Shown: in pieces, positions 20,071 through 59,940 of the stretch | Layout of the letters: every line of letters begins with the position of its first letter | How positions within the stretch are numbered: the stretch's first letter is position 1 | DNA from: an uncultured bacterium | Lineage (GTDB): Bacteria; CSSED10-310; CAZUFC01 | Direction: 5' to 3' | Assembly (NCBI GenBank): GCA_964619725.1 | Contig: CAZUFC010000029.1 | Coordinates: forward strand, 1 to 64,000 | Length of the DNA: 64,000 nt | Made by a program: the position numbers and the translations under genes | Notes under the pieces: generated by a model | Databases searched by the model: none | Told to the model about the DNA's origin: nothing | The model's input: only the letters and a program-made list of their open reading frames with translations

Positions 20071-23000
20071 ATGATAGAGTCATTGAAAATCGGAGACGTG
20101 GTTGAAACGCCGCCAGTGCATACGGTCATAAGGCTTGAACAAGGTAAAAAAGAATCAGAAACCATCGCAACAGATTTCGTCTTTACCTCTGAGGTTTTTT
20201 CTCACGTGACGGTATTGTGCGATGCCTTGATGTCCGCTACGGGAAGAGGTTTTTTCCTGCAGGGCGATTTCGGTTCAGGGAAAACTCATTTCCTGGCCGT
20301 CCTGTCAGCCTGGTTGAACAACGCTCCGGGGTCGGAAGTCCTGGAAGAAAAGCATGGCGGATTAAAAAAACTGAAAGAGTCCGGGAAAAAATTTATAACG
20401 GCTGACGTTTCGCTGATCAGATTCCGGTCCGCTACTTTACTCGAAAGGATTATTGTAGAATCCGTTCAAGAGGCGTTGAAGGAAAAACTCAGCCGTCCGG
20501 TGCGCTTGACGCCCCTGGCCGTCTTTCTTGAGGAACTCAAGGAAACGCTTAAGCAGGAAGAACCTGCGATGAGTTTTGCTAAAGAAGCGGGGATAAAGCC
20601 TGAGGAGATTTCGACTTTTATTGAAAAGCGTCCCAGGAAATCTTACACTCTGGGGATCAATGTTTACAGGCAAATGGGTATCGAATCGCCGGAATCGCTG
20701 GTGGAAGAGCGGCATGAGACTTTCCGGAGAATGATGGATGCTGTTCAGGATGCCGGATATGACGGCCTTGTCGTTTTACTGGATGAATTGTCGGAATTTT
20801 TCAGATCGAAACCGGATGCCAGGGCTTTGAACGAAGATGCCCGTACGCTTCAGTTATTCGGAGAACTCACCGCCGAATCGCCGTTATGGATACTCGGAGC
20901 GGTGCAGGAAAGCATAGAACGAACGGGCGATATTGCCCAGGTGACTTTCCGAAAAATCAAAGACCGTTTTCCCGTTAAATTCGCTTTATCTTCGGTGCAT
21001 ATTAAATCATTAATTGAAAAGAGACTCAGGAAATGGAAACCTGCAGCGCAAAGTCATATTCAGGGGATATATGATTATCTGAGGCGTCAATTCGGGTCTT
21101 TTCAGTGGACATTTGAAGATTTTTATGCGGTATATCCGGTTCATCCCTTGACCATTTCATTATTGGACGGATTGAGCGATCTTTTTTCCGTTCACCGGGG
21201 AATAGTGGATTTCGTCCATACCCGGATAGCCGGAGACCCCAGCCGGGGAATCAGGGGGATACTCGACCGTGCCTGTTACGAACTGCTGGGACCGGACAGC
21301 ATTTACGACCATTTTTCACAAAAAATGGCGGAATTTTCCGCATTTCACATATATCCACGGCATATCGTGCCTCATTTGGATGAAACGATAGATCGGATCA
21401 TTGTTGAGGAAGAGGATAGAATGCTTGCCAGACGGATAGTACGGATTCTGGTTCTTTATCAGATTCATCCGACCGAAAAGACGCCGCCCATGCGGGAATT
21501 GACGGAGCTGGCGGCATGCGCCATAGCCGACCAGGACCCTGATTTAAACTATCAATTTGTGAGTGAGGTGATCCTGGACCCGTTATGTCTGGAGAGCAAG
21601 TTCCTGGTGAAGAGGCCCTCGAAGTCCGGCGATCCTCTGGACGCGGCGTATGAAGTGGTATCACGCGAGGACCCGACGAAGAACTTGAAAGCGCGCCTGG
21701 CGCAGGTTGCATCGGATATCCCGGACGACGATACGCGACTTTTGACTTCCGCGCTTTCTGCCTTGCCTGAATCTTCTTCCTGGCCGGGTCCCGCCGTATG
21801 GTCTCAGGGAGTAAGGCGAACTGTCAAATGGCGTCAAAGCGCCCGCGAAGCGTTCGTTTTATTTCTCGATCCTGCTGTTGCCGGCGATGAAGAAGATATC
21901 TTTTCAGATGATAGAATTAATCGAGTCCTTGAAGCGGAAAAGGCTGATTTCAGTGTATTAGTAACTGTAGGCAAAAGCAGTCTTAAAAACCAGAATTGCG
22001 CTGTCTGGCAAATTCCTTTTCCTCCTGGGGAGAAGAACCTGGAAATACTCAAGGAATATTTCGCCGCCAGACAGATATCCGAATCCCTGAAACCGTCGAA
22101 TCCAGCAGAAGCGCCGTTGATTCAACATGTGAAGGAACTGCTGAAACGACTCGAACCTGCGGCTCAGCAGCAGGCCCTGGACCTTTTTTACCAGGGGACC
22201 TTTACGTATCCGGACATAAAGATAGACCCCGTGGTAAAACAGTTGAAAGTTTTTAACCGGATATTGGAAGAAGCGGGGAATCATTTGCTGGAGCTGCGAT
22301 ATCCGGGATTCCGCGAAATAGAACCGAAAAAGGTCGAACCTTTTCCCAGGTTATACCAGAGGCTGCTGGATGAATTCGTTATACCCGGTTCCCTCACGCT
22401 TCGGGAAACGCATGTGCGCGGATTGTCGGATGCCATAGAAGGGCTTGCGAAACCTTTGGGCATGGCTGCAATGAAAGCCGGCAACTATCTGTTTTCTCCT
22501 GACCCGGAATCTCATCCGCTGCTCTCCTATCTGTTCAGTCACATTCGTCCCGGCGGAACCACGGCAACTTCCGAATTGATGCATAAGCTGGAAACCGGCA
22601 AATACGGCGTCCCCAGGAATATGGCCCGTTTCCTCATCGCAGCGCTCGCTCACGGCGGACTCATAACGCTGTTGAAAAACGGAAGGACCATTTCCGTCGA
22701 TTTTCTCCAATTAAATTCAGTGGAAAATGCCGATACTGTCGCTCCCGGCGAATTGATCAACAGGAATGACCGTAACTTCCTGCTGCAGGAATGCACTTTC
22801 CTCGAATCAGTGAAAAAAACGGAAGCTTTCGGACTGCGCAAGCAGAGAGACATATGGCGTGAACTGATTAAATATAAGGAAAAAATGAATAAGATTCTGG
22901 AAGATATGCGGAAGCAGATGGCTTCCATGGAGGATTTTTCCGCGTTTCAAACTTTGGACCGCCAGAGAATTCAATCACTGGTGAGCGGGATGGAGAACGC

Positions 23001-25089
23001 GATAGATGAAATTAAAATTTCCTATACTGCTAGAGACGGCCTGGAGCGGTTCGTCAGGGCCTGGCGCGGTTCAGGCATTACAGCGGATGACGTGGAATAT
23101 ATCCTCAAAACTCACAAGTTCTTCCAGAAATATGCCGCTCAGATTATTTTCATTAACTATTATATACGGCATTCAGCGGTCGAAGCCGCAGCTTCTGAGG
23201 ACGAACAGACGGCCGAATATCGAGAAAAAATTCTTGAGCTTGTGAATGACCTGGAAAAACTGATCCTGGAAGACCAGGTTCCGATGCTTACGGACCTGTT
23301 TGAAAGATACAGAAACCTATACGCCCACTATTATGCAGCCCGGCACAATGAATATTACGGACGCTTTGAGAAAAAAAAGCTGTCGCGCTATGCAGACAGA
23401 GCCCTCAGCCTGCTGGAAAAGCTCGCGTCCGTTGAAACGCTTGATAAGCCGGAGGGATTGGATGCGCTTATACAGGATTTACGCGGCGCGGACAGGAGAA
23501 TTTGCAATAGAAATCTCACGGAAGAATTGATGAGAGCCCCTGTGTGCAGTTGCGATTATGAACCTCAGAAGGATGATACGACGCCGGAAGAGACGCAAAA
23601 ACCCGAGGACCGTATCGAGGGGTTTTTAAATGACTATCTTGATATACTCAAAGGCGCTAAAGTGCGGGAAGCCGTTTCAGCCCGAATTTACGCAGTCGCA
23701 GAAGTCATGCCCGAAAGCGCGGAAAGATTGAAAAGGTTCAGTCGCTTCATTCAAGACCAACATTCCTCCGCAGCCGGCCTGCTTGACGTTCTTGATGACA
23801 TCGTTCTGGATGAAATTTCACGGGCCCTGTCGGGACGCATTAAAATTGAAAGACGCAGTTTTAAATCGCTTGAAAGAAAACTGAGAGGGAGACGTTTAAC
23901 TCCTAATCAATTGTATGACGTATTTAGAGAATGGATATCGCTAGCCCCGGAAGACAGCGTTATTTCAATCGAAGATGTCGGCGCTGCGATTGATGAAGAT
24001 GAAACGCAGACGACAGCTCCGTCAAAAAAAGAGTTTTCCTGGTGGAAAGCCCTTCATCCTGAATTGTTCAGAGAACAGGAACCGAGAGCCGTCAGCGGAT
24101 TAGAAGCCAAGCTGGAGAATACCCTGCCTGTTGCGGAATTCAAAGATGAATTGAAGCGTTTCAACGCTAAACAGCTTTACGATTTTATCCTGAATGAGAA
24201 ATTTCACCTGCATGCCGTCCGTTGCGCCTGGCTTATCTTGGCAGAAAGGGTCCTCGGCGGGGAAGTATTTCCGACCTCAGCAGAGTTTAAATCACAATAC
24301 TATGACAGAGAAAAAGCGGTTCGAATTACGGATCGTCTCACCGCTCTCAAACGGTTCGATACATTGCATCGGCAAAATTTACCCGAAGCCCTGAAAACCC
24401 GGCTTCCGCTGGCAGATATGCTGGTTGATTCCTGGATTACGAACGATCTCAGAAGCACGGTATTGCTCGAACTGCATAAAATCGCCGCCAGGGGAGATGA
24501 ATGGTTGAGTTCGCTGAAAGATGCGGAACCGCTGATCTTGAAAGAATATCCCATAGTATTGATCCTGGACGGCGTTGCTCCGGATGTCTGGCTGCAGGCG
24601 ACGGAGAACCTGGGTCCAAATATGCTGAGGGAATTCGAAATATCCTGGAGACGCTTGACGGTTCCTCCTAAAACCCGGGATGCCCTGGCTGCCATGTTCG
24701 ATTTTACGGGCGATCCGGTCGAAGAGTTTCACGCGCGGGATATTCCCTACGTTAATGTAAAAGGCGATGAAACTTCTAACCTGGAACAGCTTTTGCCCCC
24801 ATATTCGGAAGCGAAGCCCCTGATCATCCGTATTGCCCTGATTGATAAAGAAGCTCATTCAGCGCGCATGAGGTTGCCGGAAATGCCCGCCGTAGTCGCC
24901 AGAGCGCTCGAAAGCGAATTGCCCTTCATGAAAAGACTGGCTGTTTCCAAAAACGTCCCCCTGATCATTACCGCTGACCACGGCATGTCGCTGACGCCCA
25001 AAGGACTGACTCACGGCAAAGGAGGCGTTTACGAAGAAGCTGTATTTCGGGCTGCTTTAAGGTTTTCGACGGGTAAAAAGAAGGACTGA
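20071..25089 (+). CDS. BrxC/DUF6079-like P-loop ATPase fused to a PglZ-like alkaline-phosphatase-fold domain
   Basis: Walker A GDFGSGKTH, Walker B VVLLDELSEF, KIKDRF, YPVHP, C..(x11)PVCSC motif. C-terminal VLILDGV..D.W, IITADHG and HGKG...EE motifs. Confidence 0.72.
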   Translation: MIESLKIGDVVETPPVHTVIRLEQGKKESETIATDFVFTSEVFSHVTVLCDALMSATGRGFFLQGDFGSGKTHFLAVLSAWLNNAPGSEVLEEKHGGLKKLKESGKKFITADVSLIRFRSATLLERIIVESVQEALKEKLSRPVRLTPLAVFLEELKETLKQEEPAMSFAKEAGIKPEEISTFIEKRPRKSYTLGINVYRQMGIESPESLVEERHETFRRMMDAVQDAGYDGLVVLLDELSEFFRSKPDARALNEDARTLQLFGELTAESPLWILGAVQESIERTGDIAQVTFRKIKDRFPVKFALSSVHIKSLIEKRLRKWKPAAQSHIQGIYDYLRRQFGSFQWTFEDFYAVYPVHPLTISLLDGLSDLFSVHRGIVDFVHTRIAGDPSRGIRGILDRACYELLGPDSIYDHFSQKMAEFSAFHIYPRHIVPHLDETIDRIIVEEEDRMLARRIVRILVLYQIHPTEKTPPMRELTELAACAIADQDPDLNYQFVSEVILDPLCLESKFLVKRPSKSGDPLDAAYEVVSREDPTKNLKARLAQVASDIPDDDTRLLTSALSALPESSSWPGPAVWSQGVRRTVKWRQSAREAFVLFLDPAVAGDEEDIFSDDRINRVLEAEKADFSVLVTVGKSSLKNQNCAVWQIPFPPGEKNLEILKEYFAARQISESLKPSNPAEAPLIQHVKELLKRLEPAAQQQALDLFYQGTFTYPDIKIDPVVKQLKVFNRILEEAGNHLLELRYPGFREIEPKKVEPFPRLYQRLLDEFVIPGSLTLRETHVRGLSDAIEGLAKPLGMAAMKAGNYLFSPDPESHPLLSYLFSHIRPGGTTATSELMHKLETGKYGVPRNMARFLIAALAHGGLITLLKNGRTISVDFLQLNSVENADTVAPGELINRNDRNFLLQECTFLESVKKTEAFGLRKQRDIWRELIKYKEKMNKILEDMRKQMASMEDFSAFQTLDRQRIQSLVSGMENAIDEIKISYTARDGLERFVRAWRGSGITADDVEYILKTHKFFQKYAAQIIFINYYIRHSAVEAAASEDEQTAEYREKILELVNDLEKLILEDQVPMLTDLFERYRNLYAHYYAARHNEYYGRFEKKKLSRYADRALSLLEKLASVETLDKPEGLDALIQDLRGADRRICNRNLTEELMRAPVCSCDYEPQKDDTTPEETQKPEDRIEGFLNDYLDILKGAKVREAVSARIYAVAEVMPESAERLKRFSRFIQDQHSSAAGLLDVLDDIVLDEISRALSGRIKIERRSFKSLERKLRGRRLTPNQLYDVFREWISLAPEDSVISIEDVGAAIDEDETQTTAPSKKEFSWWKALHPELFREQEPRAVSGLEAKLENTLPVAEFKDELKRFNAKQLYDFILNEKFHLHAVRCAWLILAERVLGGEVFPTSAEFKSQYYDREKAVRITDRLTALKRFDTLHRQNLPEALKTRLPLADMLVDSWITNDLRSTVLLELHKIAARGDEWLSSLKDAEPLILKEYPIVLILDGVAPDVWLQATENLGPNMLREFEISWRRLTVPPKTRDALAAMFDFTGDPVEEFHARDIPYVNVKGDETSNLEQLLPPYSEAKPLIIRIALIDKEAHSARMRLPEMPAVVARALESELPFMKRLAVSKNVPLIITADHGMSLTPKGLTHGKGGVYEEAVFRAALRFSTGKKKD

Positions 25090-25242
25090 CCAGACGTCGG
25101 CTATGGCGCTGATCTTGTTAACAAACGAGTGACCCTTAATAACCTGCAACCTGACTGATGATTTGCGTATTATCATGAGCGCTCAAGAGCTTGACTTATG
25201 AAGCACAAATGTGCATACTTTTCTTGGAGGGAGGATTGGCGA

Positions 25243-25518
25243 GTGGATATCGGATTTGTTTGGGAAGAAACAAAATATCTTGAGGTTTTAGAAAAGCATA
25301 ATGTCAGATTTTATGAGGTTGTTTCTTCTTTTGATGATGATAACGGATACGAGACGCCTGATCCTGCCGGACATGAAGATCGATGGTTATGGGTTGGAGC
25401 TACGGTCGAAAACCGTATTCTGGCAGTAGTGTATTCCGAAGAGGAACTTCCTCTTTATCGTTTAATAACGGCATTTGATGCTGAGGAGGCATGGCTGAAT
25501 GAATATTACAGAAAATAG
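25243..25518 (+). CDS. brnT: BrnT-family toxin
   Basis: GFVWEE.K......KHNVRF.E....F.D...EDRW..VG....RILAVVY......RLITA pattern. GTG start at 25243 after GGAGG. Confidence 0.85.
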   Translation: MDIGFVWEETKYLEVLEKHNVRFYEVVSSFDDDNGYETPDPAGHEDRWLWVGATVENRILAVVYSEEELPLYRLITAFDAEEAWLNEYYRK

Positions 25519-25813
25519 AAATTTTGATTATCAGGATTACATGAAAAAAAAGACTCCTGAGAGGGATAAAATTCGCAGGGGAAAAGATGAGCGAACTAAG
25601 CGGCGTGAGATGGCGAAAACGCGAATCACCATCCGGATAGACGAAGACATTCTGCATAAATTTAAAGAGCTGACTCCTGCGGGACGAGGATACCAGACTT
25701 TAATCAACCAGGCTCTGAAGGAATGGATAGACGCCCGGAGCGTTAAAGAGCTCATCCGCAAAGAACTACCTGAAATCCTTGATAAAGCCGTTTCATCACG
25801 ATCTCAGCGCTGA
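25499..25813 (+). CDS. brnA: BrnA-family antitoxin
   Basis: KTRITIRIDEDIL..FK......GYQTLINQAL ribbon-helix-helix motif; overlaps the toxin gene. Confidence 0.88.
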   Translation: MNITENRNFDYQDYMKKKTPERDKIRRGKDERTKRREMAKTRITIRIDEDILHKFKELTPAGRGYQTLINQALKEWIDARSVKELIRKELPEILDKAVSSRSQR

Positions 25814-25866
25814 GGAAGTGTTATTATTTCAGAAGGGGTTGCGAAGAAATTGTCTGCAGGGCTGTT

Positions 25867-26658
25867 CTATGCTTTTCGACGGGTAAAAAGAAGGGCTGAC
25901 CATACGTCGTCTATGGAGATGATCTTGTAATCGACTATTCCAACAGCAAGGCCGGTTTTCCTGACGACGGCTTGAGACAAGCCGGATGCGACGCCTGAAG
26001 TTTTTTTGGGCCAGGCTATCCATATGGAGCCGTTATGGTTCAACCCGTTGATCATGGCTTCCAGGCGATCATCAAGGACTTTTTTTGTTAAGGCGAACCA
26101 GATGATTAAATCATGATCGCTTGTGATCTTTCGGACAATCTTTGTTCCTGGGGGAACCGTTCCCAGGTTGCTGATGAACTCATCAGGCGGATTGATGACC
26201 GCTATCGACATATTTTGCTTAATTCCGAGTTTCTTAGGCAACGGAGTTTTAGAATAAGCGGCAAAAACCGAGGAAGGGACGACCGGATTCTCAGGCGCAT
26301 TTTGCATGGCTTCATGAAGCTCTTCGGCTACATTATTCCATGAAGAGAAAACGGCATCCGGCAATAATTCTTTAATTTTAGAAACCTTGGCTGGATCGCC
26401 TCCAACGAAGATAAGGGGAACGAACCGGGTGGCCTTGTAATGTCGCAGGTTCAGGGCGATATCCCGTCCTTGCGAGGGAAGACGTGACAGGTCGATGACG
26501 AAAGCAGCCGGCGGATTTTTTCGGATTTCTTTCAGCAAAGCAGGCGTCACAGCATTATAATCGCATCTGAAACCCGATGCTTCAAGCTTTTCGACGCATT
26601 TTGCCGCTTCACTCTCCTTCCAGTGAATAAGACGGACGTTTTTCATTTTAAAAAGCAA
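25867..26658 (-). CDS. Receiver-like domain fused to a DUF3052-like domain
   Basis: N-terminal VIDLSRLPSQGRD...PLIFVGG; C-terminal L.KKLGIK...IWIAWPKK.SG......GIVDYKI.SID..WSAL.F. Confidence 0.7.
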   Translation of the reverse strand: MLFKMKNVRLIHWKESEAAKCVEKLEASGFRCDYNAVTPALLKEIRKNPPAAFVIDLSRLPSQGRDIALNLRHYKATRFVPLIFVGGDPAKVSKIKELLPDAVFSSWNNVAEELHEAMQNAPENPVVPSSVFAAYSKTPLPKKLGIKQNMSIAVINPPDEFISNLGTVPPGTKIVRKITSDHDLIIWFALTKKVLDDRLEAMINGLNHNGSIWIAWPKKTSGVASGLSQAVVRKTGLAVGIVDYKIISIDDVWSALLFTRRKA

Positions 26659-26813
26659 CCTCCAATCGATGTTTCTTTATCCCGCAATTTTTGCGCAACG
26701 AGACGGATATCTAAGGGGAATCATAAGAGAATTGACTGATTTGTTCAAATGCAGAAGACGGCATCATGCGGAATTTAACGGCGAATCGAACGAATCTGAC
26801 GAATGAGGGGATG

Positions 26814-27375
26814 GATTGATCAAAAATGAGTCTTTTAAGGTTACAATTCTACAGAATATCACATCATTTATAACGGACCTGAGAAAATTGATGTTTGGGC
26901 TGTGACCAGTAAGAAAAACAACCCCCCGATCCGCTAATGCTGAGACTTCGCCTGCGTCTCATCTCAGCATAAGCGTATCTTTCCCCTCTTTTGCTAAGGG
27001 GGATTTCAATACGCCGATTTTTTTGATTGGTTCACTCAGTTAAACGTTTTGAAAAGAGAGTGTAACCCCGGTTTGATCAGTCCCAGGAAATTTTTAGAAT
27101 ATGATCAGGATAACACATATCATCTCGTAGTTATTTTCTTGCGACCCCGATACAAACGGCCCTCGATGAAATAAACAGGGGATTTCAATCAATCAAAGGT
27201 TTTATGAAAAAGTTCAGTCCAGAGATGATCAGTCCCAAAATCCCGTTTATTTTTTGAGACGGTTAATTTTCAGATGCAGGTTTTGTTTAACCTAAAGATT
27301 TTAAATTCCAGTCGTCCCTTCTCTCCCTTAGGTCCCTTAGGTCCTTTAGGTCCCTTTGTCCTTTTGTCCCTTCGT
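26814..27375. repeat. Mosaic of family B segments, a hairpin element and a 9-mer array
   Basis: ATTGATCAAAAATGAGTC at 26815; TGTAACCCCGGTTTGATCAGTCCC at 27061-27084; 27140-27375 parallels 1140-1420; ATGCTGAGA...TCTCAGCAT hairpin at 26937-26970. Confidence 0.7.
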
Positions 27376-27655
27376 TTTTTTTTATCCTTATATCATTAAA
27401 TGCCTACCAGAAAACAATTTGAATAATTTAGCAGTAACTGTCCACAAACGAATTTTTAGTCGGTTCGAAATTTCGCGGATAAGAAAGCAAGCCCGGCATT
27501 GGTAAATGATTAAAGTATTTTTGAAGAATTGATATCTGTGAAATCACGTGAATTTACGCGAAAACAAAGCATCAAGGCAATCGTCTGCCGGTCAGGTCTG
27601 CAATTTGCGTGGACGAACATGCCTTCACTGCCTATAATGGCTGGAAGGAGGAATT

Positions 27656-28219
27656 ATGATGAATGAATTCAAAGAGGTTTCCGTCAATAAAGCTTACCGG
27701 TTGATCAATCATGGTCCGACACTCCTGGTGTCGACCGTTTCAGAGAATAATGAGTATGATATCGCGCCTATCGCCTGGAATTGTCCCGCGCAGAAGGCTC
27801 CGACAAGAATTGCGATTATGGTGGGGAAAAGTCACATGACTTATCAGAACATAGAATCTGCGGGAGAGTTTATCGCGTGCGTTCCTCACGTAAGTCAGGC
27901 GGAGATCGTGATGAAACTGGGCTCCGCGTCGGGAAGGGACGTTGATAAAATCGGGAAATTCGGAGTAGAAACATTTGAAGGATCAAAAGTCAAGGTTAGA
28001 ATCCCGGCGGAATCTATGGGCTATCTGGAATGCAGAGTTGCAGATATCATTCACATGAGCAACACCGGTCTGATTATCGGCGAATGCGTTTACGCTGCAG
28101 CAGGGATAAAAGCGTTTGATGAGCGCGTGTTAACGGAAAATTACGAGGGAAAATCCCTCCATCATCTGGGCGGAAAGACTTTTGCCGTGCCGGACATCCC
28201 TTTTAATGTTTCATCATAA
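27656..28219 (+). CDS. Flavin reductase-like (split-barrel) protein
   Basis: AYRLINHGPT.LVS, GS.SGRD.DK, LECRV and LHHLGG motifs; RBS AGGAGG. Confidence 0.88.
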   Translation: MMNEFKEVSVNKAYRLINHGPTLLVSTVSENNEYDIAPIAWNCPAQKAPTRIAIMVGKSHMTYQNIESAGEFIACVPHVSQAEIVMKLGSASGRDVDKIGKFGVETFEGSKVKVRIPAESMGYLECRVADIIHMSNTGLIIGECVYAAAGIKAFDERVLTENYEGKSLHHLGGKTFAVPDIPFNVSS

Positions 28220-28334
28220 AAGTATTCGGTGTTGCTCAAATAGCCCCTTTCGAGGTTATAATTTTCTCAGCCTTTAACAATAAAGAAGCCTGGAAAATCT
28301 GATAAAAACAAAACGCCTCTCCTCGTCATAATTT

Positions 28335-28610
28335 ATTCCGATACCGACGCCGATAACTAAGCAAACAACTCTTGATGAGAAAACAGCGGTGAGTTCTTCA
28401 GGCAGACATTTGTGGGAGAGGGGCAGTTTATTATGAGGATTTCATCAGTCAAATATTGGCATTGACCAAAAATGCGTTTTTTTAGGTGACAATCTGACAG
28501 AATGACCCGTCATTTTGTTTCGATTTCGATTGCGACCCGATACCGACCCCGGTTACTGAAACGAACCGTCAAAACTTTTTAAAGAAGTGTTAACGCGATT
28601 TGATCAATCT
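28335..28610. repeat. Family B segments, including a compact copy of about 150 bp (28458-28609)
   Basis: GGCATTGACCAAAAATGCG...few hexamers...GATTTGATCAATC. Confidence 0.7.
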
Positions 28611-28642
28611 AGAGATTTTTAACAAAAACAACCGCTAACATT

Positions 28643-29746
28643 TTAGCCGATCTGTTGAGACAGTGACCGGGGCGGATCATAACCGCAGAATTCAGTAATT
28701 TTTCCTTCTCCGATTCTAAATCTGACGAGTGTTTCGGATGCTGGACCGCAGGCAGTGACTTTCTGTAACCATGTTTTTCTGATGGTTTCATTCATGAGGA
28801 ACTGAACTGTTCCATCGAGTGTATGCCGGCTGAAAGCGCCGAGGACAACCGCTTTATTTCCGTCACCGCTTGAATCCCCAAGCCCTTTTGTGTATATTAC
28901 GCTGAAACTTTCTCCGTCTTTGAAATAGCTGGGTTGCTTGCATTCGTAAAAATCTGTTGCGACGCCGTTTACTAGATTTTCTATACCTAAACGTCCATCC
29001 GAGGTATCTCTCAAAAGGGGGCCCTGTTTGAATGCTTTTGGTCTGACGACATAACGGTAGCCTTTTAACATTTTTTCACTTATATTAGCCCATTGAGCTA
29101 CCAGAGATTGGACAAAGGAAACTGCTCCAGGTCCTCCAAGGAACAGCCAGTTCCTGCCGGGATTCAGGTTATGTCCCGATGGATGAATCATGACGACTTG
29201 AAGAGGATTATGGTTGTAAAGGTAGGGATTAAAAAGTTTGAACAGTTTTTGCTGCAAATCGAATGCTGTTTTTAATGTTCTATGATTTACTCCAGCTACT
29301 TCACCGAATTCTTCGAGGGGGATGATAATATCGAGACCGCTAAAGAAAAGTTCATACCAGAATTTACCTTGAAGATTTTCTTCTGAAATCCTTTGAATCA
29401 ATGCATGGAGTGAATTCTGAGCAGTGTATCGGCAAATTTGGAATTCACTCAAATACGAAGGAATCGAAACTTCTTTATGCAAAATTATAGGAAAGACTTT
29501 CTTTCCAAGGCTTTTCGCTAATTTCACTTCAATAGGAATCCAATCTGACCCGATAGAATTTTTGGATAAAACGGGCAGGATAATTGAGCTGGCGACGAGA
29601 TGTTTTATAATTTCCTTATCCCATTGGACGCCTGTTTTTAGATTTCTGTCGTACCAGACCGCTACTCCCTTCTCATTTAATTCCGAATATATATAATCGA
29701 CAAGCGCTCTGTCCTCTGAGCAGTAACTTATGAAAACGTCACTCAT
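28643..29746 (-). CDS. TIR-domain protein with an uncharacterised C-terminal domain
   Basis: DVFISY..ED, GV.VWYD, LSKNSIGSDWIPIEV (putative catalytic Glu) and VFPIIL motifs. Confidence 0.88.
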   Translation of the reverse strand: MSDVFISYCSEDRALVDYIYSELNEKGVAVWYDRNLKTGVQWDKEIIKHLVASSIILPVLSKNSIGSDWIPIEVKLAKSLGKKVFPIILHKEVSIPSYLSEFQICRYTAQNSLHALIQRISEENLQGKFWYELFFSGLDIIIPLEEFGEVAGVNHRTLKTAFDLQQKLFKLFNPYLYNHNPLQVVMIHPSGHNLNPGRNWLFLGGPGAVSFVQSLVAQWANISEKMLKGYRYVVRPKAFKQGPLLRDTSDGRLGIENLVNGVATDFYECKQPSYFKDGESFSVIYTKGLGDSSGDGNKAVVLGAFSRHTLDGTVQFLMNETIRKTWLQKVTACGPASETLVRFRIGEGKITEFCGYDPPRSLSQQIG

Positions 29747-30773
29747 TCTTCATCACTCCCCATATGGCGGTAGCATCGTCATGAACTTTTAATCGAGGGT
29801 ATTTATCCCTGGTTTCATCTTTTAATTCAATGGCTCTCAGACGCCTCAGGTAAATTTTTAAACCTTGTTTCTTTATTATATTACGCATCCAGAGATACCG
29901 TCGTTTTTCCGTTATTTGAGTTTCATCCCATTGAGGTGGTCTTGGGAATCCATCTGTACAGAGCAGGAATTCTGATACGGAATCTAAAGACAGGCTTCCT
30001 GTTTGGATATAGTATTCCATTTGAGGAAGTCCGTTAATAACACCGACCCCAAGGTTTCTGTCTGGTCGGCCTGACTCGTCGATATAATTGTGATAGACGG
30101 CGAGATATTTATTCTTGCTTATTATTTCTGGGGCATTCAAAACATCCGATAAATGATTTGCATGTCTCACTTTTTGCAATTGTCTAGCCAATCTGATCAC
30201 TTTTTCATCATGCTTGCCCATCTGGTTTTCCGTAAGGCACATAAGGTCATCGTCGTCGTTAAAAATCGTTAACTCGGTATCACCAATATGTGCAAATTTC
30301 AGACTATTTTTTTTTATATTCAATTCCACGATTGTAGCAACGCAGACTGGAAGAGCAAGACGAATTAACCGCGGGTCCTGCCTTATAAAACTAAAACCCG
30401 GTTCTTCGCTGAAAAGTCCGTCTGCATAAACCCGTCTAAAAGCAAGATCGATTTCACTTCCCAGGTTTTTATTGGCCTTCAGCATTAATTTGCTTAGAGA
30501 AACAATTTCATTATTGTTTATCTCATTCTCAATAAAAACTTTTGTAAATCTTGCAGCGTATGCGGCAGCCGTAGCCTTATTGCCAAATTTGGCAAATAGT
30601 AATTTGAGTTTGTCAGTGGGGACTCGTTGAGATGCTCCGTCAATGACTCCGAGGTATATAACCGCGCCTTTTTCCACTATAAACCAGGCATCTTCATTGA
30701 CATTATCGTTGCCGGGTGATTTTTTGCTTATTACGGAGATTTTCACCGACTTGTGATCTAATTCACAATGCAT
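29739..30773 (-). CDS. PP2C/PPM-fold phosphatase-like protein
   Basis: NEDA, VIDGAS, AHIGDT, LLCTDGF and HDDAT metal-binding motifs; 8-bp overlap with the TIR gene. Confidence 0.82.
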   Translation of the reverse strand: MHCELDHKSVKISVISKKSPGNDNVNEDAWFIVEKGAVIYLGVIDGASQRVPTDKLKLLFAKFGNKATAAAYAARFTKVFIENEINNNEIVSLSKLMLKANKNLGSEIDLAFRRVYADGLFSEEPGFSFIRQDPRLIRLALPVCVATIVELNIKKNSLKFAHIGDTELTIFNDDDDLMCLTENQMGKHDEKVIRLARQLQKVRHANHLSDVLNAPEIISKNKYLAVYHNYIDESGRPDRNLGVGVINGLPQMEYYIQTGSLSLDSVSEFLLCTDGFPRPPQWDETQITEKRRYLWMRNIIKKQGLKIYLRRLRAIELKDETRDKYPRLKVHDDATAIWGVMKNE

Positions 30774-30907
30774 TTTATTTCCTGTTTTCAGAAGTCAAGG
30801 AATCATTCATTTGATTCTTTCGTTCGGGAGAATGAGAAAAAATTACAATAAAGAATATATCAGTCGCCTGCAGTAGAGTAAAGACAATAATCAGAGTTCA
30901 ACGGGAA

Positions 30908-31945
30908 TTAATACCTTTTCGGTCGTTTCGGATAACTCTGGAACGGCGTTCTCGGTTCGAGGCTGATCCAGTCGGAGGAATCATCGATATTCGAGAGTGA
31001 TCGCAGGAGGTCGAAAGTGAGCCAACGAGACGCGTTTGGATTGGCGGGGTATTCCCACAGTCCGAACGGACCTTGATTTTCTTTGATGAACTTTAACATA
31101 TCGGCTAATCTTTGATCGTTTTTATCGACGCCGATGAGTGCGCAGAGCTTTATGATCAGGGCAGGATCAAAACGGGCATGATAGGTCAGGAACCCCCTGT
31201 ATGGTTCCAGGCCGATTATTCTTGCTGTTTCGAAGCCCAGTGTGTGTTTCTCTTTGGATTCTCTTCCGAGGAGCAGGTCCAGCGCTTTTTGAGCGGAGGG
31301 ACTTTTTTTCAATTCAGGATGGCGGGCCAGGCAGCGCAAGACGGCTGTGGTATTAGATCGGCATCCCCACCGGGAATGCGCCAATTTTCGGTAACCGGCG
31401 ACTCGACCGTAGTTTCCGGATGCGATCCCGGTAGGCCAGGCGCCGTCCGGGAGACTCCGGTTAAGAAGCCACTCGAATGCTTTATCTGTTTCGGGAAGAG
31501 CCGTTTCTCCGCACATGACGAATCCCAGGAGAGGGATAGCGGTCTGAAGCGGAATCATGGAATATCCTTCTTTTGCCTCGTTTTCATCCCTGGAGTATGA
31601 CAGGGGCCAGGAACCGTCCTTGTTCTGTTTGGACAGGAGGTATTGCAGGGCTTTTTCAACAGGCGGGAAGTTTGAGTCGAAGCCGAGATAACCCATGCGA
31701 GTCAGGGCCTGGGCGGTTATGATTATTTTAGAACGATGAAAGCGTGATGCCATGCTTTCGAATGCCCCGTTTTTCTGTTGAAAGGGAATCAGTCGCTTGA
31801 TCAGATTGTCTTCGTAACGGAGTTTTTTCAGTTCTTTTATTTCTTCGTCATGCTCAGGCGATCTATTCATCAAGTCTTTCAGGACGAGACTTCTCAGGCA
31901 GGCCGATGGATCGGTCAAAAGCAGCGGTATTAAATTCATTTTCAT
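30908..31945 (-). CDS. Prenyltransferase/squalene-oxidase-repeat (alpha-alpha toroid) protein
   Basis: QW-like repeats QQKNGAF, YLLSKQNKDGSW, LPDGAW and NQGPFGLW. Confidence 0.75.
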   Translation of the reverse strand: MKMNLIPLLLTDPSACLRSLVLKDLMNRSPEHDEEIKELKKLRYEDNLIKRLIPFQQKNGAFESMASRFHRSKIIITAQALTRMGYLGFDSNFPPVEKALQYLLSKQNKDGSWPLSYSRDENEAKEGYSMIPLQTAIPLLGFVMCGETALPETDKAFEWLLNRSLPDGAWPTGIASGNYGRVAGYRKLAHSRWGCRSNTTAVLRCLARHPELKKSPSAQKALDLLLGRESKEKHTLGFETARIIGLEPYRGFLTYHARFDPALIIKLCALIGVDKNDQRLADMLKFIKENQGPFGLWEYPANPNASRWLTFDLLRSLSNIDDSSDWISLEPRTPFQSYPKRPKRY

Positions 31946-31991
31946 TTGGACTGAAGGATCAAGTTAAATTGAACCAGATCATTTTTCATTT

Positions 31992-34900
31992 TTAGATTAA
32001 ACTCCGTTCAAGCGCCTCCCGAATAAAAGGCGCTGTAGGCGTATTTCCATCGGCCAGCTCTTCAGGCGTTCCCTGAGCGATCAATTTGCCGCCGTCCGGA
32101 CCACCGCCGGGACCCAATTCGACAAGCCAGTCGCATATTGCAAGGAAATGGGGATGATGTTCTATGGCGATGACGGTATGGCCCTGTTCAACGAGACGGT
32201 GCAGCACATCAATTAATTTCTGAATGTCAGAGATATGCTGACCGACAGTCGGTTCATCCAGGATGTAAAGGGTGTCGGGTATGGTTTTACGGCCGAGTTC
32301 GCACGCTATTTTCAAGCGTTGCGCTTCCCCTCCTGAAAGAGCGTAACCGGGTTGGTCCATGACCAGGTAACCGAGTCCTACTTCCCTGGCTGTCGACAGG
32401 GGGCGAGCTATCTGATCTGTTTCGCCGAACAATTCGTAAACCTGGTCCAGGGTCAGACGCGATATTTCCGGCAATGATTTATTTTTTATTTTAATTTGCC
32501 GTATTTCCGGCGGATAACCCGTTCCATCGCATGTTTCGCATGTTTCATACACGTCCGGCAGGAAGCCCATATCCAGTTTTTTTCTGCCGGCGCCCCTGCA
32601 GGCTGAGCACGGCCGGGAAAGTTTACCCATGTCCAGACCCAATGCTTTGGCATCTTCGCTTTCAGCGAACAAACGGCGCAACCGGTTTTGCAGTTTAAGC
32701 TGTTTCGAAGGACTGGTGATGCCTGCTTTAGTCTGATCGATAATGATGACACGGGCCGGAGCTCCTTCTATCGCTCCATGCTTTCCGGGCATCAGGGGTT
32801 CATAAGCTACTGAAGTCGTGTGTTTTCTCGGCGCCAGCGCCCGTCCTATCGTATCGATCAGAAGGGTGCTTTTGCCTGATCCGGATACACCGCAAAGACC
32901 TGTCATTTTTTTCAGTGGGAATCGTAATTCATTTAATCGAAGGTTATTCTCGAAGGCTCTTTTGACGGTCATCCACCGGCGGCATTTCGGGTTCGATTTG
33001 CGGCGTTCAATCGTTATCTCTTTACGAAGCCACCGGGCCGTTGGAGTCTGATATCCATGCATCTGTTCGGGCGTTCCCTGTGCTGCAACGCGTCCGCCTG
33101 CAGCTCCCGCTCCGGGACCCATATCGATGATATGGTCGGCGGACTTAATGAATAGCGGATCATGTTCCACGACGATAACCGTATTATTGTCGTCTCTGAG
33201 TTGTTTCAAGGTATCGAGAAGAGACTCGACTTCAGACGGATGCATGCCTCGAGTCGGTTCGTCCAGAAGCAGGGTGAGAGAAGAGAGTTCGCTGCCCAGG
33301 AATCCGGCCAGTTTTATTCGCTGGGCCTCGCCGGCAGAAAGTTCGGCTGTAAGGCGATCCATGTTCAGATAACCGAGTCCTACCTTCATCAGAAAATTCA
33401 AGCGATTCAGCATCACTGAGATATTTTGACCGATAAGCGGGAGCAGGCGGTCGGGTAAAGGATACTTCTGTATAACATTGAACGCTTCGATCAGTGACAT
33501 CTGTTTTATTTCATGGATATTATAGCCGGCGAATTCAACGGCCAGATATTCAGGACGCAGCCTGGCGCCTTTGCATTCCGGACAGGGAACCGTTTCGGTA
33601 TAAGCGCCTCCTATGTCCCAATCTCTGATAAAACCGTAAAAACCCGGAAATTTGCATTTTCCTTCTTTAACGGTTCCGTTGCGGCTGTGAAAAACGGCCG
33701 TTAAAGGTTCATTATCACCGAAAAGAAAGGCTCGCTGCGCTTCAGGCGTCATTTCGTTCCAGGGAGTAGTATCCGGATTAAAACCGTAACGGCCGGCCAA
33801 TGCCTGGAGCATATCATAGCCCCCGTTGAAAGGTTTACACAAATAACCTTTCGGAAAGAACCCCGGGGAGTGCATGGCGCCTCTGCAGAGCGGTTTGCCG
33901 GGGTTTATGATCAGTTTATCTGGTTTTGGCATTTGAAGCGTCCCGATTCCATGGCATTTCAGGCAGGCTGCGGAGTAATTAACGGGTGAAAAGCGTCTGG
34001 GTTGGGCCGTTTGCGATTGATTTCCGCAACGAGGACATACCCAGGCAGCTTTCCTGGTCATAGCGACATTGCAATTTTCACATTTTTTAATTCCGGCGAA
34101 AGCAAAAATGATTTCGAGATGATGAGACAGCTCTGATGCCGATCCGACTGTCGATCTCCGGTCGAATCTTTTACGTTTTCCTTTGAGGCCCAGGGTGACG
34201 CCGAGTCCCTCAATGGAATCAGCCGGCGCTTCCGGCCCTTCTTTTGTACCCTGTCTTTCGTACAATGACAATGTTTCCAGGTAGCGCCGCATCGCTTCGG
34301 AATACAATACGTCGTCAACCAGGCTGGATTTGCCCGATCCCGATACTCCTGTAACGACCGTCAATGCAGACTTAGGAATATCCACATCGATATTCTTCAG
34401 GTTATGAATACTCGCTTTTCGAATTGAAATGACAGGCGCCGCAGTTCGCGGACGGCGCTTGTTATCCTGTTCTGGAGCAGGCCGAATCTGTTCTTCCTGC
34501 AATAAAGCCTTACCGGTTAATGATTCGTCTGCATACTCCATAAGGTCCCTGGCAGGTCCTACATAGAGCAGGCAGCCCCCCGCGTCGCCCGCTCCAGGAC
34601 CCAGGTCAATCGCCCAGTCAGCCGCACTGATCATGTCCGGATTATGTTCCACTATGACGATGGTCGCTCCCCTGCGGCACAGTTCGTCCAAAACCTTCAG
34701 CAATCCCGATATATCGTGCGGATGTAATCCCGTCGTGGGTTCATCCAGTATCAGCATTCTATCAGCTAATCTTTTCTGATTTAAATAACGGCCTAGTTTT
34801 ATCCGCTGTGATTCTCCTCCGGAAAGAGAAGGAGACGGCTGACCCAAAGGCAGATATCCCAAACCGATGTCACAAAGAGCTTTCAGGATGCGTTCGGCTT

Positions 34901-36914
34901 TTTTCTTTTCTTTTTTATCGAGTTTATCTGTTCGAAGAAACAACTCCCTGGCCTCTGAAACGCTCAATTCATAAAAATCGGCAATGGATAATTCCTTACC
35001 GTTAAAATCAACTTTTTCCGTTAATACCTCATCACTGAACCTTCGTCCTCCACATTCGCTGCATACCAGCCAGTCCGCGGCCAGATAACGCATCCGCACT
35101 TCTACTGAACCCAGTCCCTTGCACACGGGGCAGGCTCCTTCGGGCCTGTTGAATGAAAAATGAGCCGGCGATAGTCCCGTGGAGCCGGAGAACAAATCGC
35201 GTATCAGGTCAGAAAGTTTAGTGTAGGTGGCGGGATTGGATCGGGGATTCTTGCCTATAGGACTCTGGTCCGCTAATAATGGTCTCAGCGCCGGTCCTTC
35301 GAAAGAAATACATCCGACAGGTTTTTTTTTCTTCAAGGAAGCCGTTATGACATCCTCCGCCAGCGTGCTTTTTCCCGCACCGGATACTCCAGTAACAACG
35401 GTGATGTTTTTCAGGGGAATCTTGACGTCGATGTTACGCAAATTTCGCAAGAAGGCGCTTCGAATTATCACGAATTCTTCCGGTTCGGGTCGCTTTTCGG
35501 GGATGGATGCACGCTTTTTTAAACTGAAATACTCTCCCGTCACGGTATCTGATTTCCATAATCCTGCAGGAGAGCCGGCGTACTGTAAACGGCCTCCTTC
35601 TTTTCCAGTGCCGGGACCCAGTTCAACGGCGTAATCAGAGGCTGCTGCGGCTCTTCTGTCATGTTCAACAAAAATGACGGGTCCCTTTAAGCGATGAAAA
35701 ACCGAAATTATCCTGTCGATATTCACCGGATGTAATCCTATGGTCGGTTCATCCAGGACATACAGCATGTCCGATAACCGGCTGGTCAGAATGACGGCCA
35801 GCCTCACACGTTGCGATTCCCCGCGCGAAAGGGTGGGCGAGGGTCTGTCAAGAGTAAGATAATCCAGTCCGACGGAGCGTAAAGCTTCCAACCTCATCGT
35901 TATCTCCAGCAACAGACGATCGGCGGTTTCTGAACAGTCTGAACTTTTGAAAAGACTCAGAATTGTCTTCACATTGCTTCTCAACATGTCCCTGAAGCGC
36001 AGACCCTGCCAGAAAACAGAAGCAGCCGTGGGATGCATTCCTGTCTCGGTACACTTTTCGCACCCCCTGCCACGGCAGTGCGGACAGGCAGTATGAAAAT
36101 ACACGGGGGCCGGTTCGTCGAATAACTCACCGCATTCACTGCATGCCCTTGTATGGGAATAAAGCCGACTTTCACCGGATGTTTTTGCCATTACAGCATT
36201 GGAACCGAGTGACCAGGCTTTTTTTAATTCTTTGCGAAATTCTGCTGCATCGCTGTCCGGTCCGAAACGACCCAATTTAATAAATATACTGTGTTCCCCG
36301 AACGGATTTAAATCTTTATCCTGGAAAGCTTCACCATCTACTTCCAGCGAAGTCGCACCGAATTCCTTCGCTAAGAATCTGATTAATGTGCGATGACTCC
36401 CTTTCACCCGATTGACAAGCGGAGCCATAAGCTGAATGCTTGACTGGGATGAGTCCTTCAATAACCGGACGATAATTTCATCTTCCGTCATCACATTCAC
36501 TGCGGAACCGCATTTTGAGCACAGGCGTTCGCCGAAATGAGAATAAAAAAGCCGTAGAAAAGGATGCAATCCGCAGGCCGTAGCCAATGTAGAATGAGGA
36601 TTCCTGTTCAGAAGGTTCTGACTCAAAGAGACGCTGGGTCTCAGGCCGGTTATGCCTTCCACCTCGGCAGGACTTAAGCGCTTGTCCGCGGAACCCCCGG
36701 AAAATATCTCGTAAAAACGGCGACGCGATTCATGATGCAGAGTGTCGAAAATAAGCGATGTTTTTCCCGAACCGGATATGCCGGTTACGGCCGTCAGTCC
36801 GTCAGGAATATCCAGGCTTACTTCTTTCAGATTATGTTCGCTTGCCTTCCTGATATGTATGGTCATTGGTTCCTGCATCGCGGTTTGGGAATCCTGATGA
36901 TAATCCTTCATCAT
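31992..36914 (-). CDS. uvrA: Double-length UvrA-family ABC ATPase (four ABC domains)
   Basis: Four Walker A motifs (GISGSGKT, GVSGAGKS, GVSGSGKS twice), four signature motifs (LSRGESQR, LSGGESQR, LSAGEAQR, LSGGEAQR), four LDEPT motifs and multiple CxxC. Confidence 0.9.
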   Translation of the reverse strand: MMKDYHQDSQTAMQEPMTIHIRKASEHNLKEVSLDIPDGLTAVTGISGSGKTSLIFDTLHHESRRRFYEIFSGGSADKRLSPAEVEGITGLRPSVSLSQNLLNRNPHSTLATACGLHPFLRLFYSHFGERLCSKCGSAVNVMTEDEIIVRLLKDSSQSSIQLMAPLVNRVKGSHRTLIRFLAKEFGATSLEVDGEAFQDKDLNPFGEHSIFIKLGRFGPDSDAAEFRKELKKAWSLGSNAVMAKTSGESRLYSHTRACSECGELFDEPAPVYFHTACPHCRGRGCEKCTETGMHPTAASVFWQGLRFRDMLRSNVKTILSLFKSSDCSETADRLLLEITMRLEALRSVGLDYLTLDRPSPTLSRGESQRVRLAVILTSRLSDMLYVLDEPTIGLHPVNIDRIISVFHRLKGPVIFVEHDRRAAAASDYAVELGPGTGKEGGRLQYAGSPAGLWKSDTVTGEYFSLKKRASIPEKRPEPEEFVIIRSAFLRNLRNIDVKIPLKNITVVTGVSGAGKSTLAEDVITASLKKKKPVGCISFEGPALRPLLADQSPIGKNPRSNPATYTKLSDLIRDLFSGSTGLSPAHFSFNRPEGACPVCKGLGSVEVRMRYLAADWLVCSECGGRRFSDEVLTEKVDFNGKELSIADFYELSVSEARELFLRTDKLDKKEKKKAERILKALCDIGLGYLPLGQPSPSLSGGESQRIKLGRYLNQKRLADRMLILDEPTTGLHPHDISGLLKVLDELCRRGATIVIVEHNPDMISAADWAIDLGPGAGDAGGCLLYVGPARDLMEYADESLTGKALLQEEQIRPAPEQDNKRRPRTAAPVISIRKASIHNLKNIDVDIPKSALTVVTGVSGSGKSSLVDDVLYSEAMRRYLETLSLYERQGTKEGPEAPADSIEGLGVTLGLKGKRKRFDRRSTVGSASELSHHLEIIFAFAGIKKCENCNVAMTRKAAWVCPRCGNQSQTAQPRRFSPVNYSAACLKCHGIGTLQMPKPDKLIINPGKPLCRGAMHSPGFFPKGYLCKPFNGGYDMLQALAGRYGFNPDTTPWNEMTPEAQRAFLFGDNEPLTAVFHSRNGTVKEGKCKFPGFYGFIRDWDIGGAYTETVPCPECKGARLRPEYLAVEFAGYNIHEIKQMSLIEAFNVIQKYPLPDRLLPLIGQNISVMLNRLNFLMKVGLGYLNMDRLTAELSAGEAQRIKLAGFLGSELSSLTLLLDEPTRGMHPSEVESLLDTLKQLRDDNNTVIVVEHDPLFIKSADHIIDMGPGAGAAGGRVAAQGTPEQMHGYQTPTARWLRKEITIERRKSNPKCRRWMTVKRAFENNLRLNELRFPLKKMTGLCGVSGSGKSTLLIDTIGRALAPRKHTTSVAYEPLMPGKHGAIEGAPARVIIIDQTKAGITSPSKQLKLQNRLRRLFAESEDAKALGLDMGKLSRPCSACRGAGRKKLDMGFLPDVYETCETCDGTGYPPEIRQIKIKNKSLPEISRLTLDQVYELFGETDQIARPLSTAREVGLGYLVMDQPGYALSGGEAQRLKIACELGRKTIPDTLYILDEPTVGQHISDIQKLIDVLHRLVEQGHTVIAIEHHPHFLAICDWLVELGPGGGPDGGKLIAQGTPEELADGNTPTAPFIREALERSLI

Positions 36915-59799: not shown

Positions 59800-59940
59800 A
59801 GGATTTAAACTGAGAAATTGTAACCCTGACAGGGCCATTTTTGATCAGCGCCTATTTCAGGATGCCGGTTAGATTGACGGGGGGCAATGTCTCGTAATAG
59901 ATTTTGTATGAGAGATGCGGGCTAAGCATTCGTTTAGAAT

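Follow-up and report, generated by a model that had tools for sequence, protein, structure and literature searches.

Immune systems of bacteria, plants and animals share the TIR domain as their catalytic core, and for each of them the central question is what holds this domain inactive and what activates it. In the closest described bacterial systems, the TIR protein works with a characteristic partner: a ThsA-like protein in Thoeris, a CD-NTase or cyclase in the cyclic-oligonucleotide-based anti-phage signalling system (CBASS) and the pyrimidine cyclase system for anti-phage resistance (Pycsar), and an Argonaute in the short prokaryotic Argonaute–TIR systems (SPARTA). In a survey of conflict systems in multicellular prokaryotes (PMC7159879), PP2C is named once, beside a kinase and a vWA protein, and in that place not with TIR. 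Here we analysed a 64,000-bp stretch of DNA (the window; contig CAZUFC010000029.1, positions 1 to 64,000, assembly GCA_964619725.1) from an uncultured bacterium of the lineage CSSED10-310, in which a gene for a predicted PP2C-like phosphatase overlaps a gene for a TIR protein extended by an unrecognised C-terminal domain (CTD). A reading of the sequence alone had singled out this pair as a candidate anti-phage system; our comparisons indicate that it may represent a novel switch for immunity or cell death under the control of a phosphatase.

The TIR-CTD protein proved to be very rare. When the single 367-aa sequence was used as a query, the only full-length match was the protein itself. Two relatives were found as neighbours of phosphatase homologues, one of 371 aa with 38% identity (L005:5942-7054) and one of 385 aa with 33% identity (L047:5971-7125). 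A CTD profile search of 5.8 billion clusters recovered, besides the window protein (P0001) and the L047 protein (P0153), only P0183 (367 aa, TIR plus CTD, 44% overall identity) and P0184 (243 aa, CTD only), which brings the CTD-bearing loci from all searches to five. No further CTD was detected in metagenome contigs, viral contigs, plasmids or phages. In two samples, one of 400 genomes taken across the Chloroflexota and one of 400 genomes taken across the class of the L047 genome, each with the centre genome added, the domain was present in 1 of 401 genomes, the centre genome itself.

In all three loci with DNA context, the TIR-CTD gene lies directly 3' of, and on the same strand as, a PP2C-like gene of a single phosphatase clade (clade A, below), with junctions of −8 bp in the window, −4 bp in L005 and about +4 bp in L047. 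Both window open reading frames (ORFs) lie exactly where the sequence-only reading had placed them and share the 8 bp that it stated; this overlap, ATGAGTGA, suggests translational coupling of the two genes; a GGAG-type ribosome-binding site precedes the TIR-CTD start, and a Shine-Dalgarno-like purine run lies upstream of both starts. The flanks of the pair are unrelated among the three loci: an SQHop_cyclase-like gene and a flavin reductase gene in the window, genes for adenosine deaminase and a small TIR protein in L005, and HtrA and GNAT genes in L047. The same two domains also occur in one chain. P0005 (481 aa) consists of PP2C_2 followed by TIR_2, with residues 333-471 aligning to residues 1-134 of the window TIR-CTD protein, and P0184 aligns to that protein from residue 149 onward. 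For P0005 and for P0184, ENA records a single contig each, and both contigs measure 120,096 bp; given this equal length, the two proteins are probably adjacent pieces of a PP2C-TIR-CTD unit on one contig, presumably a three-domain gene with one interruption or else a gene pair with a shifted boundary (PP2C-TIR rather than PP2C, then CTD rather than TIR-CTD). The proposal of a two-gene system is thereby strengthened, the arrangement recurring in two Chloroflexota metagenome-assembled genomes (MAGs) with different flanks and once as a PP2C-TIR fusion. Together, these sequence comparisons support the view that the phosphatase and TIR-CTD genes form one functional unit.

We placed the phosphatases in a maximum-likelihood tree, built by a quick search from 53 non-redundant rows, with Shimodaira-Hasegawa-like approximate likelihood ratio (SH-aLRT) support only; loci of at least 200 bits covering at least 280 profile positions were used, 7 exact duplicates were dropped and only residues 1-330 of P0005 were included. 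The window phosphatase, L005, L047 and P0005 fall into one clade of 14 rows (clade A, support 86), within which they do not group together. Four of these 14 rows have a TIR partner, seven have none (L006, L008, L011, L085, L086, L088 and L009, the last fused to Amidohydro_2) and three have too little downstream DNA. No TIR-CTD was observed that lacked the phosphatase; conversely, the phosphatase lacks TIR-CTD in 7 of the 11 informative clade-A rows, an asymmetry typical of an effector and its regulator. The co-occurrence of PP2C and TIR genes that the sequence-only reading had asked for therefore holds in one direction, for all three TIR-CTD loci with context; in the other direction it fails, the phosphatase family being mostly without TIR.

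The phosphatase family is centred on the Chloroflexota. In a scan of species genomes for family loci, with an alignment of 14 closer sequences as the query, 42 of the 43 best loci (L005-L047) were titled as Chloroflexota lineages (Anaerolineae, Anaerolineales, Aggregatilineales, Thermoflexus, Ardenticatenia, Chloroflexia and Phototrophicaceae), the exception being a Candidatus Buchananbacteria MAG with 25% identity. The family occurs once in the 9.2-Mb genome to which the window belongs, in none of 13 other genomes of the same phylum (completeness 60-96%) and was not found in viral contigs. Because of this absence from the 13 genomes, the pair looks horizontally acquired, and transfer is probably its origin; the lowest GC content in the window and a long, deviant branch are further signs of foreign provenance. 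Indeed, the window phosphatase sits on a branch of 1.35 and has a deviant amino-acid composition. The AT-richness previously noticed by eye was borne out by the GC profile: the pair has a GC content of 0.409, compared with a mean of 0.466 (sd 0.029) over 2131-bp windows of the 64 kb, only 2.2% of such windows reach so low a value, and the minimum of the entire stretch lies inside the pair. GC content at third codon positions (GC3) is 0.37-0.39 in the two genes, compared with 0.44-0.63 in 25 of the 26 other measured ORFs, only the BrnT gene being lower (0.34).

The upstream protein is predicted to be a catalytically intact metal-dependent phosphatase of the PPM/PP2C type. It matches Pfam PP2C_2 (PF13672) with E 5.2e-6 and 26.6 bits, just above the cut-off of 24, its homologues reaching 46.4 bits; PADLOC has no match for it. 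Among 1.84 billion representative proteins, 267 relatives were found at E<=1e-3 and 47 at E<=1e-30, mostly proteins of 300-350 aa that align end to end with 30-41% identity, and in the ESM Atlas the closest cluster contains 431 proteins, the majority from Chloroflexota and 35% of them with PP2C_2. In an alignment of 40 homologues, D45, G46, D165, D274, G275 and D332 are invariant, and E27, D28 and D333 are conserved in at least 90% of the sequences; all are present in the window protein, so that its metal-binding aspartate motifs (ED27-28, DG45-46, DG274-275 and DD332-333) are intact. We take these residues to be the ED, DG, GD, DG and DD motifs forming the metal sites of PPM phosphatases, an assignment with partial alignment support. 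The profile of the 40 homologues matched the solved bacterial PPM structures 2j82 and 5iti weakly (E 7e-4 to 1e-3). A conserved, family-specific insert occupies residues ~228-250 (HNY..E..G...GVGVINGLP; consensus HNYVDE..G..D...GVGVINGLPE), with H228, N229, G235, G242 and G248 strongly conserved.

The downstream protein matches Pfam TIR_2 over residues 4-108 (E 1.6e-19) and no other Pfam family, and the PADLOC and NCBIfam models that hit it (ThsB, PDC-S66, Aga_TIR and SAVED_TIR) are confined to the TIR part. The W...E motif reported earlier is present as W69 and E73 in SDWIPIE; in HMMER alignments, which also included RPV1, E73 coincides with the glutamate of RUN1 (SRWCLDE) and AbTir (DWTNYE). 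The position is kept in the four aligned TIR-bearing members of the CTD family and in the pairwise alignment with P0005. The glutamate that follows the conserved tryptophan is presumably the catalytic TIR residue, as supported by the PDB title of a RUN1 E100A mutant, and because it is present the TIR-CTD protein is predicted to be able to cleave NAD+. An AlphaFold model of the full-length protein, built on a 3-sequence alignment, has a mean predicted local distance difference test score (pLDDT) of 61.0, and of ~61-73 over the TIR domain. Compared with solved TIR structures in VIA, residues 1-122 of the model gave a best Z of 17.0 (4w8h; root-mean-square deviation (rmsd) 2.3 over 119 residues) and also aligned to the TIR domain of SARM1 (Z 15.7), MyD88 and ThsB; Foldseek matches of the TIR part ranged from E 4e-6 to 1e-4.

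The CTD comprises ~240 aa (residues ~125-367) with a conserved core from ~150 to 362, and carries LFLGGPG at residues 201-207. Motifs invariant in the family are LGGPG (203-207), GYR (229-231), LGIE (253-256), DG (311-312), CG (333-334), ETL (338-340) and PR (359-360). Two threonines, T286 and T339, do not vary among the five CTD sequences either. No Pfam, NCBIfam or PADLOC model covers residues ~125-367, a sequence-profile comparison with the PDB yielded no match (best E 0.8) and Foldseek against the PDB with a low-confidence model gave nothing at E<=1e-3, in agreement with the earlier description of this domain as unrecognised. The CTD-only model (pLDDT 58.7, predicted template-modelling score 0.64, 3-sequence alignment) is mixed alpha/beta, and LGGPG forms in this low-confidence model a unit of strand, glycine-rich loop and helix. 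A wide VIA search with the same low-confidence model peaked at Z 6.7 (BcsB, rmsd 4.2 over 146 residues; next 5.0), below the 7-8 that unrelated models typically reach; ATP-grasp/ligase chains at Z 2.5-2.7 were treated as noise. In the ESM Atlas features, the best score was 0.82, to unnamed clusters. Since the models are weak, the missing fold match is no demonstration of a new fold.

We compared the flanks of the phosphatase gene clade by clade (phmmer, E<=1e-8). Leaving aside the window and P0005, clade A has 12 loci, of which 6 encode a divergent protease of the HtrA type and 2 encode NAGPA together with Amidohydro_2. One of the latter arrangements is at L009:4956-7073, where the PP2C-like domain is fused to Amidohydro_2 and genes for a NAGPA phosphodiester glycosidase and sugar-transporter-like permeases precede; at L085:2476-4681 an Amidohydro_2 gene overlaps the PP2C-like gene and a NAGPA phosphodiester glycosidase gene precedes. 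An adenosine deaminase gene (L005:3793-4938) lies 23 bp upstream of the L005 PP2C-like gene, its product matching the deaminase part of PADLOC CARF_ADA (E 3e-51) with no CARF domain. The sister clade has an operon-like block of NTP_transferase, PMM, PP2C-like and PGM genes in 11 of 13 loci (NTP_transferase itself in 10 of 13), and in 3 loci an ADP-ribosylglycohydrolase gene directly upstream of the phosphatase. The block occurs in Chloroflexota MAGs at L045:2317-9884, L023, L044, L037, L024 and L019. On the opposite strand, 11 of the 13 sister-clade loci carry a YukD/FHA-TIR gene adjoining a receiver-domain gene; 12 of 13 match a receiver-histidine-kinase query, the examples scanned with Pfam being single-domain receiver proteins, and 3 of 13 have a Pkinase-FHA gene. 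Of the 20 loci of the third clade, 12 have PGM/PMM genes and 8 a SnoaL-like gene. These neighbourhoods can be read in two opposite ways: a TIR protein surrounded by kinase, FHA and PPM genes suggests that TIR proteins are under phosphoprotein control, and the persistent sugar-phosphate neighbours and the amidohydrolase fusion point to a small-molecule substrate or control of phosphohexomutases.

We propose, tentatively and at somewhat less than an even chance, that the TIR-CTD protein is an NAD+-cleaving effector gated by its phosphatase partner. The two genes would form one module, probably horizontally acquired, in which the TIR-CTD protein is the effector, its cleavage of NAD+ either depleting NAD+ or making an ADP-ribose-derived signal, and in which the CTD most likely senses or regulates. 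The phosphatase would be the control element and, in the manner of an antidote, would fix the phosphorylation state of TIR-CTD, most likely as a dephosphorylated, inactive form. Loss or overriding of this control, through a kinase of the cell or of an invader or through inhibition or decay of the phosphatase, would turn the TIR on, and a conflict or abortive-infection response would be the outcome. Within this scheme we infer that the TIR is an NADase, that the phosphatase acts on a protein, which way the switch works and that the pair counters phages. A complex prediction for the two proteins, run without controls, scored 0.00 against a mark of 0.32 and speaks neither for nor against binding. 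A bolder version, namely that a PPM phosphatase gates a new TIR immune module through Ser/Thr phosphorylation on, or sensed via, a regulatory domain of new fold, strikes us as doubtful. If it were true, infection would shift the balance and free NAD+ cleavage, for example through a phage kinase or because the phosphatase is inhibited or lost; the locus would be a bacterial case of phosphorylation-controlled TIR signalling, and the shuffling of domain boundaries (PP2C, TIR-CTD versus PP2C-TIR, CTD) would mean that the three domains act as one machine. The value of the case is limited by its five loci, the lack of a cultured host and a function deduced throughout.

A number of observations weigh against gating of the TIR by the phosphatase. 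The phosphate-binding arginine of the G-R-x-N-E-D motif is asparagine in the window protein and variable in other members too, the module lacks a kinase gene at all three loci, and the CTD has no recognisable match in fold or function, its models being weak. In the sister clade, the FHA-TIR proteins have glutamine at the position of the catalytic glutamate, and that link is therefore uninformative on the gating of NADase activity. Moreover, TIR_2 matches number 86, 33, 37 and 27 in four Chloroflexota genomes (G041-G044), compared with 5 in the window's genome, and with TIR genes so numerous in this phylum, loose closeness to one of them is weak evidence; the one strong piece of evidence is that genes of the rare CTD family directly adjoin the phosphatase gene on the same strand. 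That abundance is also what would favour chance adjacency without any functional link, as some adjacency to any family is then expected. We consider such a coincidence very improbable, given that the rare CTD stands behind the same phosphatase clade in the same orientation in three genomes with unrelated flanks, that a PP2C-TIR fusion exists and that the pair appears to have moved jointly into a phylum otherwise without the phosphatase family. Finally, the commonest neighbours of the phosphatase family are sugar-phosphate and nucleotide-sugar enzymes, among them PGM/PMM, NTP_transferase, ADP-ribosylglycohydrolase, NAGPA, Amidohydro_2 (once fused) and a xylose-isomerase-like TIM barrel; they fit a small-molecule substrate or the regulation of phosphohexomutases at least as well as they fit gating of a TIR.

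The dominance of these neighbours supports a reading, in our judgement unlikely but a serious rival, in which the phosphatase acts on a phosphorylated sugar or nucleotide of the same pathway and not on the TIR protein. It could mature or destroy the TIR product (of the ADP-ribose or 2'-phospho-ADP-ribose type) or act on a phosphorylated ligand sensed by the CTD. The xylose-isomerase-like gene overlaps the phosphatase gene by 4 bp, the fusions PP2C-Amidohydro_2 (L009) and PP2C-TIR (P0005) resemble consecutive catalytic steps, the conserved insert could form a ligand pocket and the module without a kinase would be accounted for. However, the sister clade comes with the classic set of Ser/Thr kinase, FHA and PPM genes, and the phosphatase is widespread without any TIR, and is therefore not dedicated to the TIR product; to our knowledge, PPM-fold enzymes are overwhelmingly protein phosphatases. 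The conjecture of the sequence-only reading, in which the phosphatase produces or takes away a ligand or modification that gates the TIR, embraces both this mechanism and the phosphorylation switch. Alternatively, and to our mind also improbable, the pair could be an endogenous, non-defence signalling module of filamentous Chloroflexota, carried here as a passenger without anti-phage function: a phospho-signalling output that employs the TIR in NAD+-linked physiology, development or kin-directed cell death. The phosphatase family does look vertically inherited in Chloroflexota, with HtrA at half of the clade-A loci and PMM/PGM operons elsewhere, and the massive expansion of TIR domains in those genomes, 27-86 in each, follows the pattern that PMC7159879 describes for multicellular prokaryotes. 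The homologous loci at L005 and L047 are not clear defence islands, being populated by histidine kinases, HtrA, GNAT and adenosine deaminase, and among defence-model matches (Pfam, PADLOC) they hold only further TIR genes and the adenosine deaminase. Against the non-defence reading stand the extreme patchiness of TIR-CTD in both Chloroflexota samples, the cross-phylum transfer of the pair and its foreign composition, the tight gene overlap, and the toxin-antitoxin pair and BrxC-like gene nearby, features that suit conflict genes better than core signalling. A defence role for the pair is plausible, in view of its rarity, patchiness, cross-phylum transfer, foreign composition and overlap and of its neighbours: in the three loci considered, defence-type genes (a partial BrxC-like match, E 3e-24, and BrnT/BrnA) lie within 8 kb of the pair in the window.

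Table 1. Features of the gene pair and its immediate surroundings in the 64-kb window.
Feature	Positions	Strand	Basis
PP2C-like (PPM, Pfam PP2C_2) phosphatase gene, predicted	29739-30773	minus	344-aa ORF, Pfam match
TIR-CTD gene	28643-29746	minus	367-aa ORF; full-length homologues L005 (38%), L047 (33%), P0183 (44%)
TIR domain, residues 1-110	29417-29746	minus	Pfam TIR_2; model alignment to solved TIRs
Glu73 codon, putative catalytic Glu of the TIR NADase site	29528-29530	minus	alignment to RUN1 and AbTir
CTD, residues 125-367	28646-29374	minus	homologue alignments; unrecognised family
LGGPG codons (CTT GGA GGA CCT GGA)	29126-29140	minus	invariant in 5/5 CTD sequences
8-bp overlap ATGAGTGA, phosphatase stop / TIR-CTD start	29739-29746	minus	read from sequence
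Intergenic region 5' of the phosphatase gene, 134 bp	30774-30907	minus	a single match to a sigma-70-like consensus, 30882-30854
Genome-wide short repeat (CCGATACCGAC[GC]CCG), two copies in the 3' flank of the pair	28338-28557	plus	repeat scan

Eight promoter-like sites, scored as consensus matches only, were counted in the region upstream of the phosphatase gene, compared with 6.0 expected, and the excess is therefore not significant. The sequence-only reading had also described the pair as bordered by repeats, a claim that did not survive: the only repeat pair nearby (28338-28358 and 28537-28557) lies wholly 3' of the TIR gene and, being made of copies of a genome-wide element, does not delimit the pair. 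The 15-nt repeat CCGATACCGACNCCG has 154 exact copies in the genome, with none for the reversed control, and 28 copies with at most one mismatch in the 64-kb window, where 0.02 were expected; because it links the contig to the rest of the assembly, it argues against a mis-binned contig. The genome-wide repeat is built of 6-nt units (CCGATA/CCGACC...) and occurs in the window at 916-1140, at 59947-60279 and scattered elsewhere; the ORFs listed at 59869-60370 overlap tandem arrays of it and are possibly not genes. No tRNA was found in the 64-kb window, no Rfam family matched 24000-33000 at E<=0.1 and the repeat scan gave no inverted or direct repeat pair with members on both sides of the gene pair. 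A mobile-element border was accordingly rejected, the repeat being genome-wide and tRNA, Rfam matches and flanking repeat pairs all lacking.

Upstream of the pair, at a distance of 134 bp, 30908-31945 (minus strand) encodes a 345-aa prenyltransferase/squalene-hopene-cyclase-like alpha-alpha toroid protein. This SQHop_cyclase-like gene has no counterpart at L005 or L047, and the three loci share no conserved third gene; a fusion of TIR with SQHop_cyclase_C exists elsewhere (P0161, named in NCBI as a Thaumarchaeota TIR protein). Beyond it, 31992-36914 (minus strand) encodes a double-length, 1640-aa UvrA-like protein (TIGR00630, 1275 bits), the last 300 residues of which also match the PADLOC mad3 and mad8 models. 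On the other side, 26659-27655 is an AT-rich stretch of ~1 kb (GC 0.38-0.43) with no ORF of at least 60 aa, a 9-nt tandem repeat at 27314-27349 and no Rfam match, and 25198-25813 (plus strand) holds the overlapping BrnT toxin and BrnA antitoxin genes, BrnT having the lowest GC3 of any ORF measured. The gene at 20071-25089 (plus strand) encodes a 1672-aa P-loop protein with only partial matches to DUF6079 and BrxC/PglY models: PADLOC BrxC matches residues 211-364, NCBIfam BREX_BrxC scores 75.9 bits against a cut-off of 400, and Pfam models match nothing in its last 400 residues. No further bacteriophage exclusion (BREX) gene was seen adjoining it; a TPR protein is encoded directly upstream (19106-20065).

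In a collection of open-access full texts, as distinct from subscription journals and supplements, we found no description of a bacterial TIR system under the control of a PPM phosphatase; PP2C was met together with TIR domains and NADase only in plant-immunity reviews. Among the closest described systems, Thoeris shares the TIR: the window protein has a TIR_2/ThsB-like domain, to which PADLOC ThsB models align over residues 1-103 (E 1e-9 to 1e-3), its model superimposes on the ThsB structures 6lhy (Z 14.5) and 8wcf (Z 11.6), and the catalytic glutamate is kept. However, Pfam and PADLOC scans revealed no adjoining ThsA-like partner (SIR2/SLOG, Macro or transmembrane) at the three loci; a PPM phosphatase takes the partner's place here, and a CTD of 240 aa is fused to the TIR. 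The TIR-SAVED and TIR-STING effectors of CBASS and the TIR effectors of Pycsar share the layout of an N-terminal TIR and a C-terminal domain of 200-300 aa, a possible ligand binder, but the PADLOC SAVED_TIR match and the structures 7qqk, 6wt7 and 7un8 cover the TIR part only, the CTD has no sequence match to SAVED or STING and no fold match with low-confidence models, and no CD-NTase or cyclase gene adjoins the pair at the three loci. SPARTA differs in that no Argonaute is encoded among the neighbours, and the PADLOC Aga_TIR matches are confined to residues 3-98 of the TIR part. The partners characteristic of Thoeris, CBASS/Pycsar and SPARTA are lacking in the module, as the sequence-only reading had anticipated in assigning the pair to no recognised system. 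BcTir/BcTpr, as far as its published description (bioRxiv 10.1101/2023.05.26.542521) bears on gene content, is likewise a two-gene operon of a TIR and a non-TIR partner, the partner there being a TPR protein; here it is a PPM phosphatase, and the TIR has an additional domain. Type II toxin-antitoxin systems resemble the pair in their small overlapping genes, with a putative regulator upstream and a putative toxic enzyme downstream that never occurs without its partner, whereas the upstream gene here encodes a 344-aa enzyme with a wide independent distribution and not a small DNA-binding antitoxin. Finally, the Ser/Thr kinase-FHA-PPM sets share a PPM with intact metal-binding motifs, and the sister clade lies near FHA-TIR and Pkinase-FHA genes; the module described here has neither kinase nor FHA, its output being a predicted catalytic TIR with an unknown domain. 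By its sequence matches, the module is a member, at the domain level, of the PPM and TIR superfamilies, and should the phosphatase gate the TIR, the TIR repertoire would gain a logic of control by phosphorylation together with a new regulatory domain.

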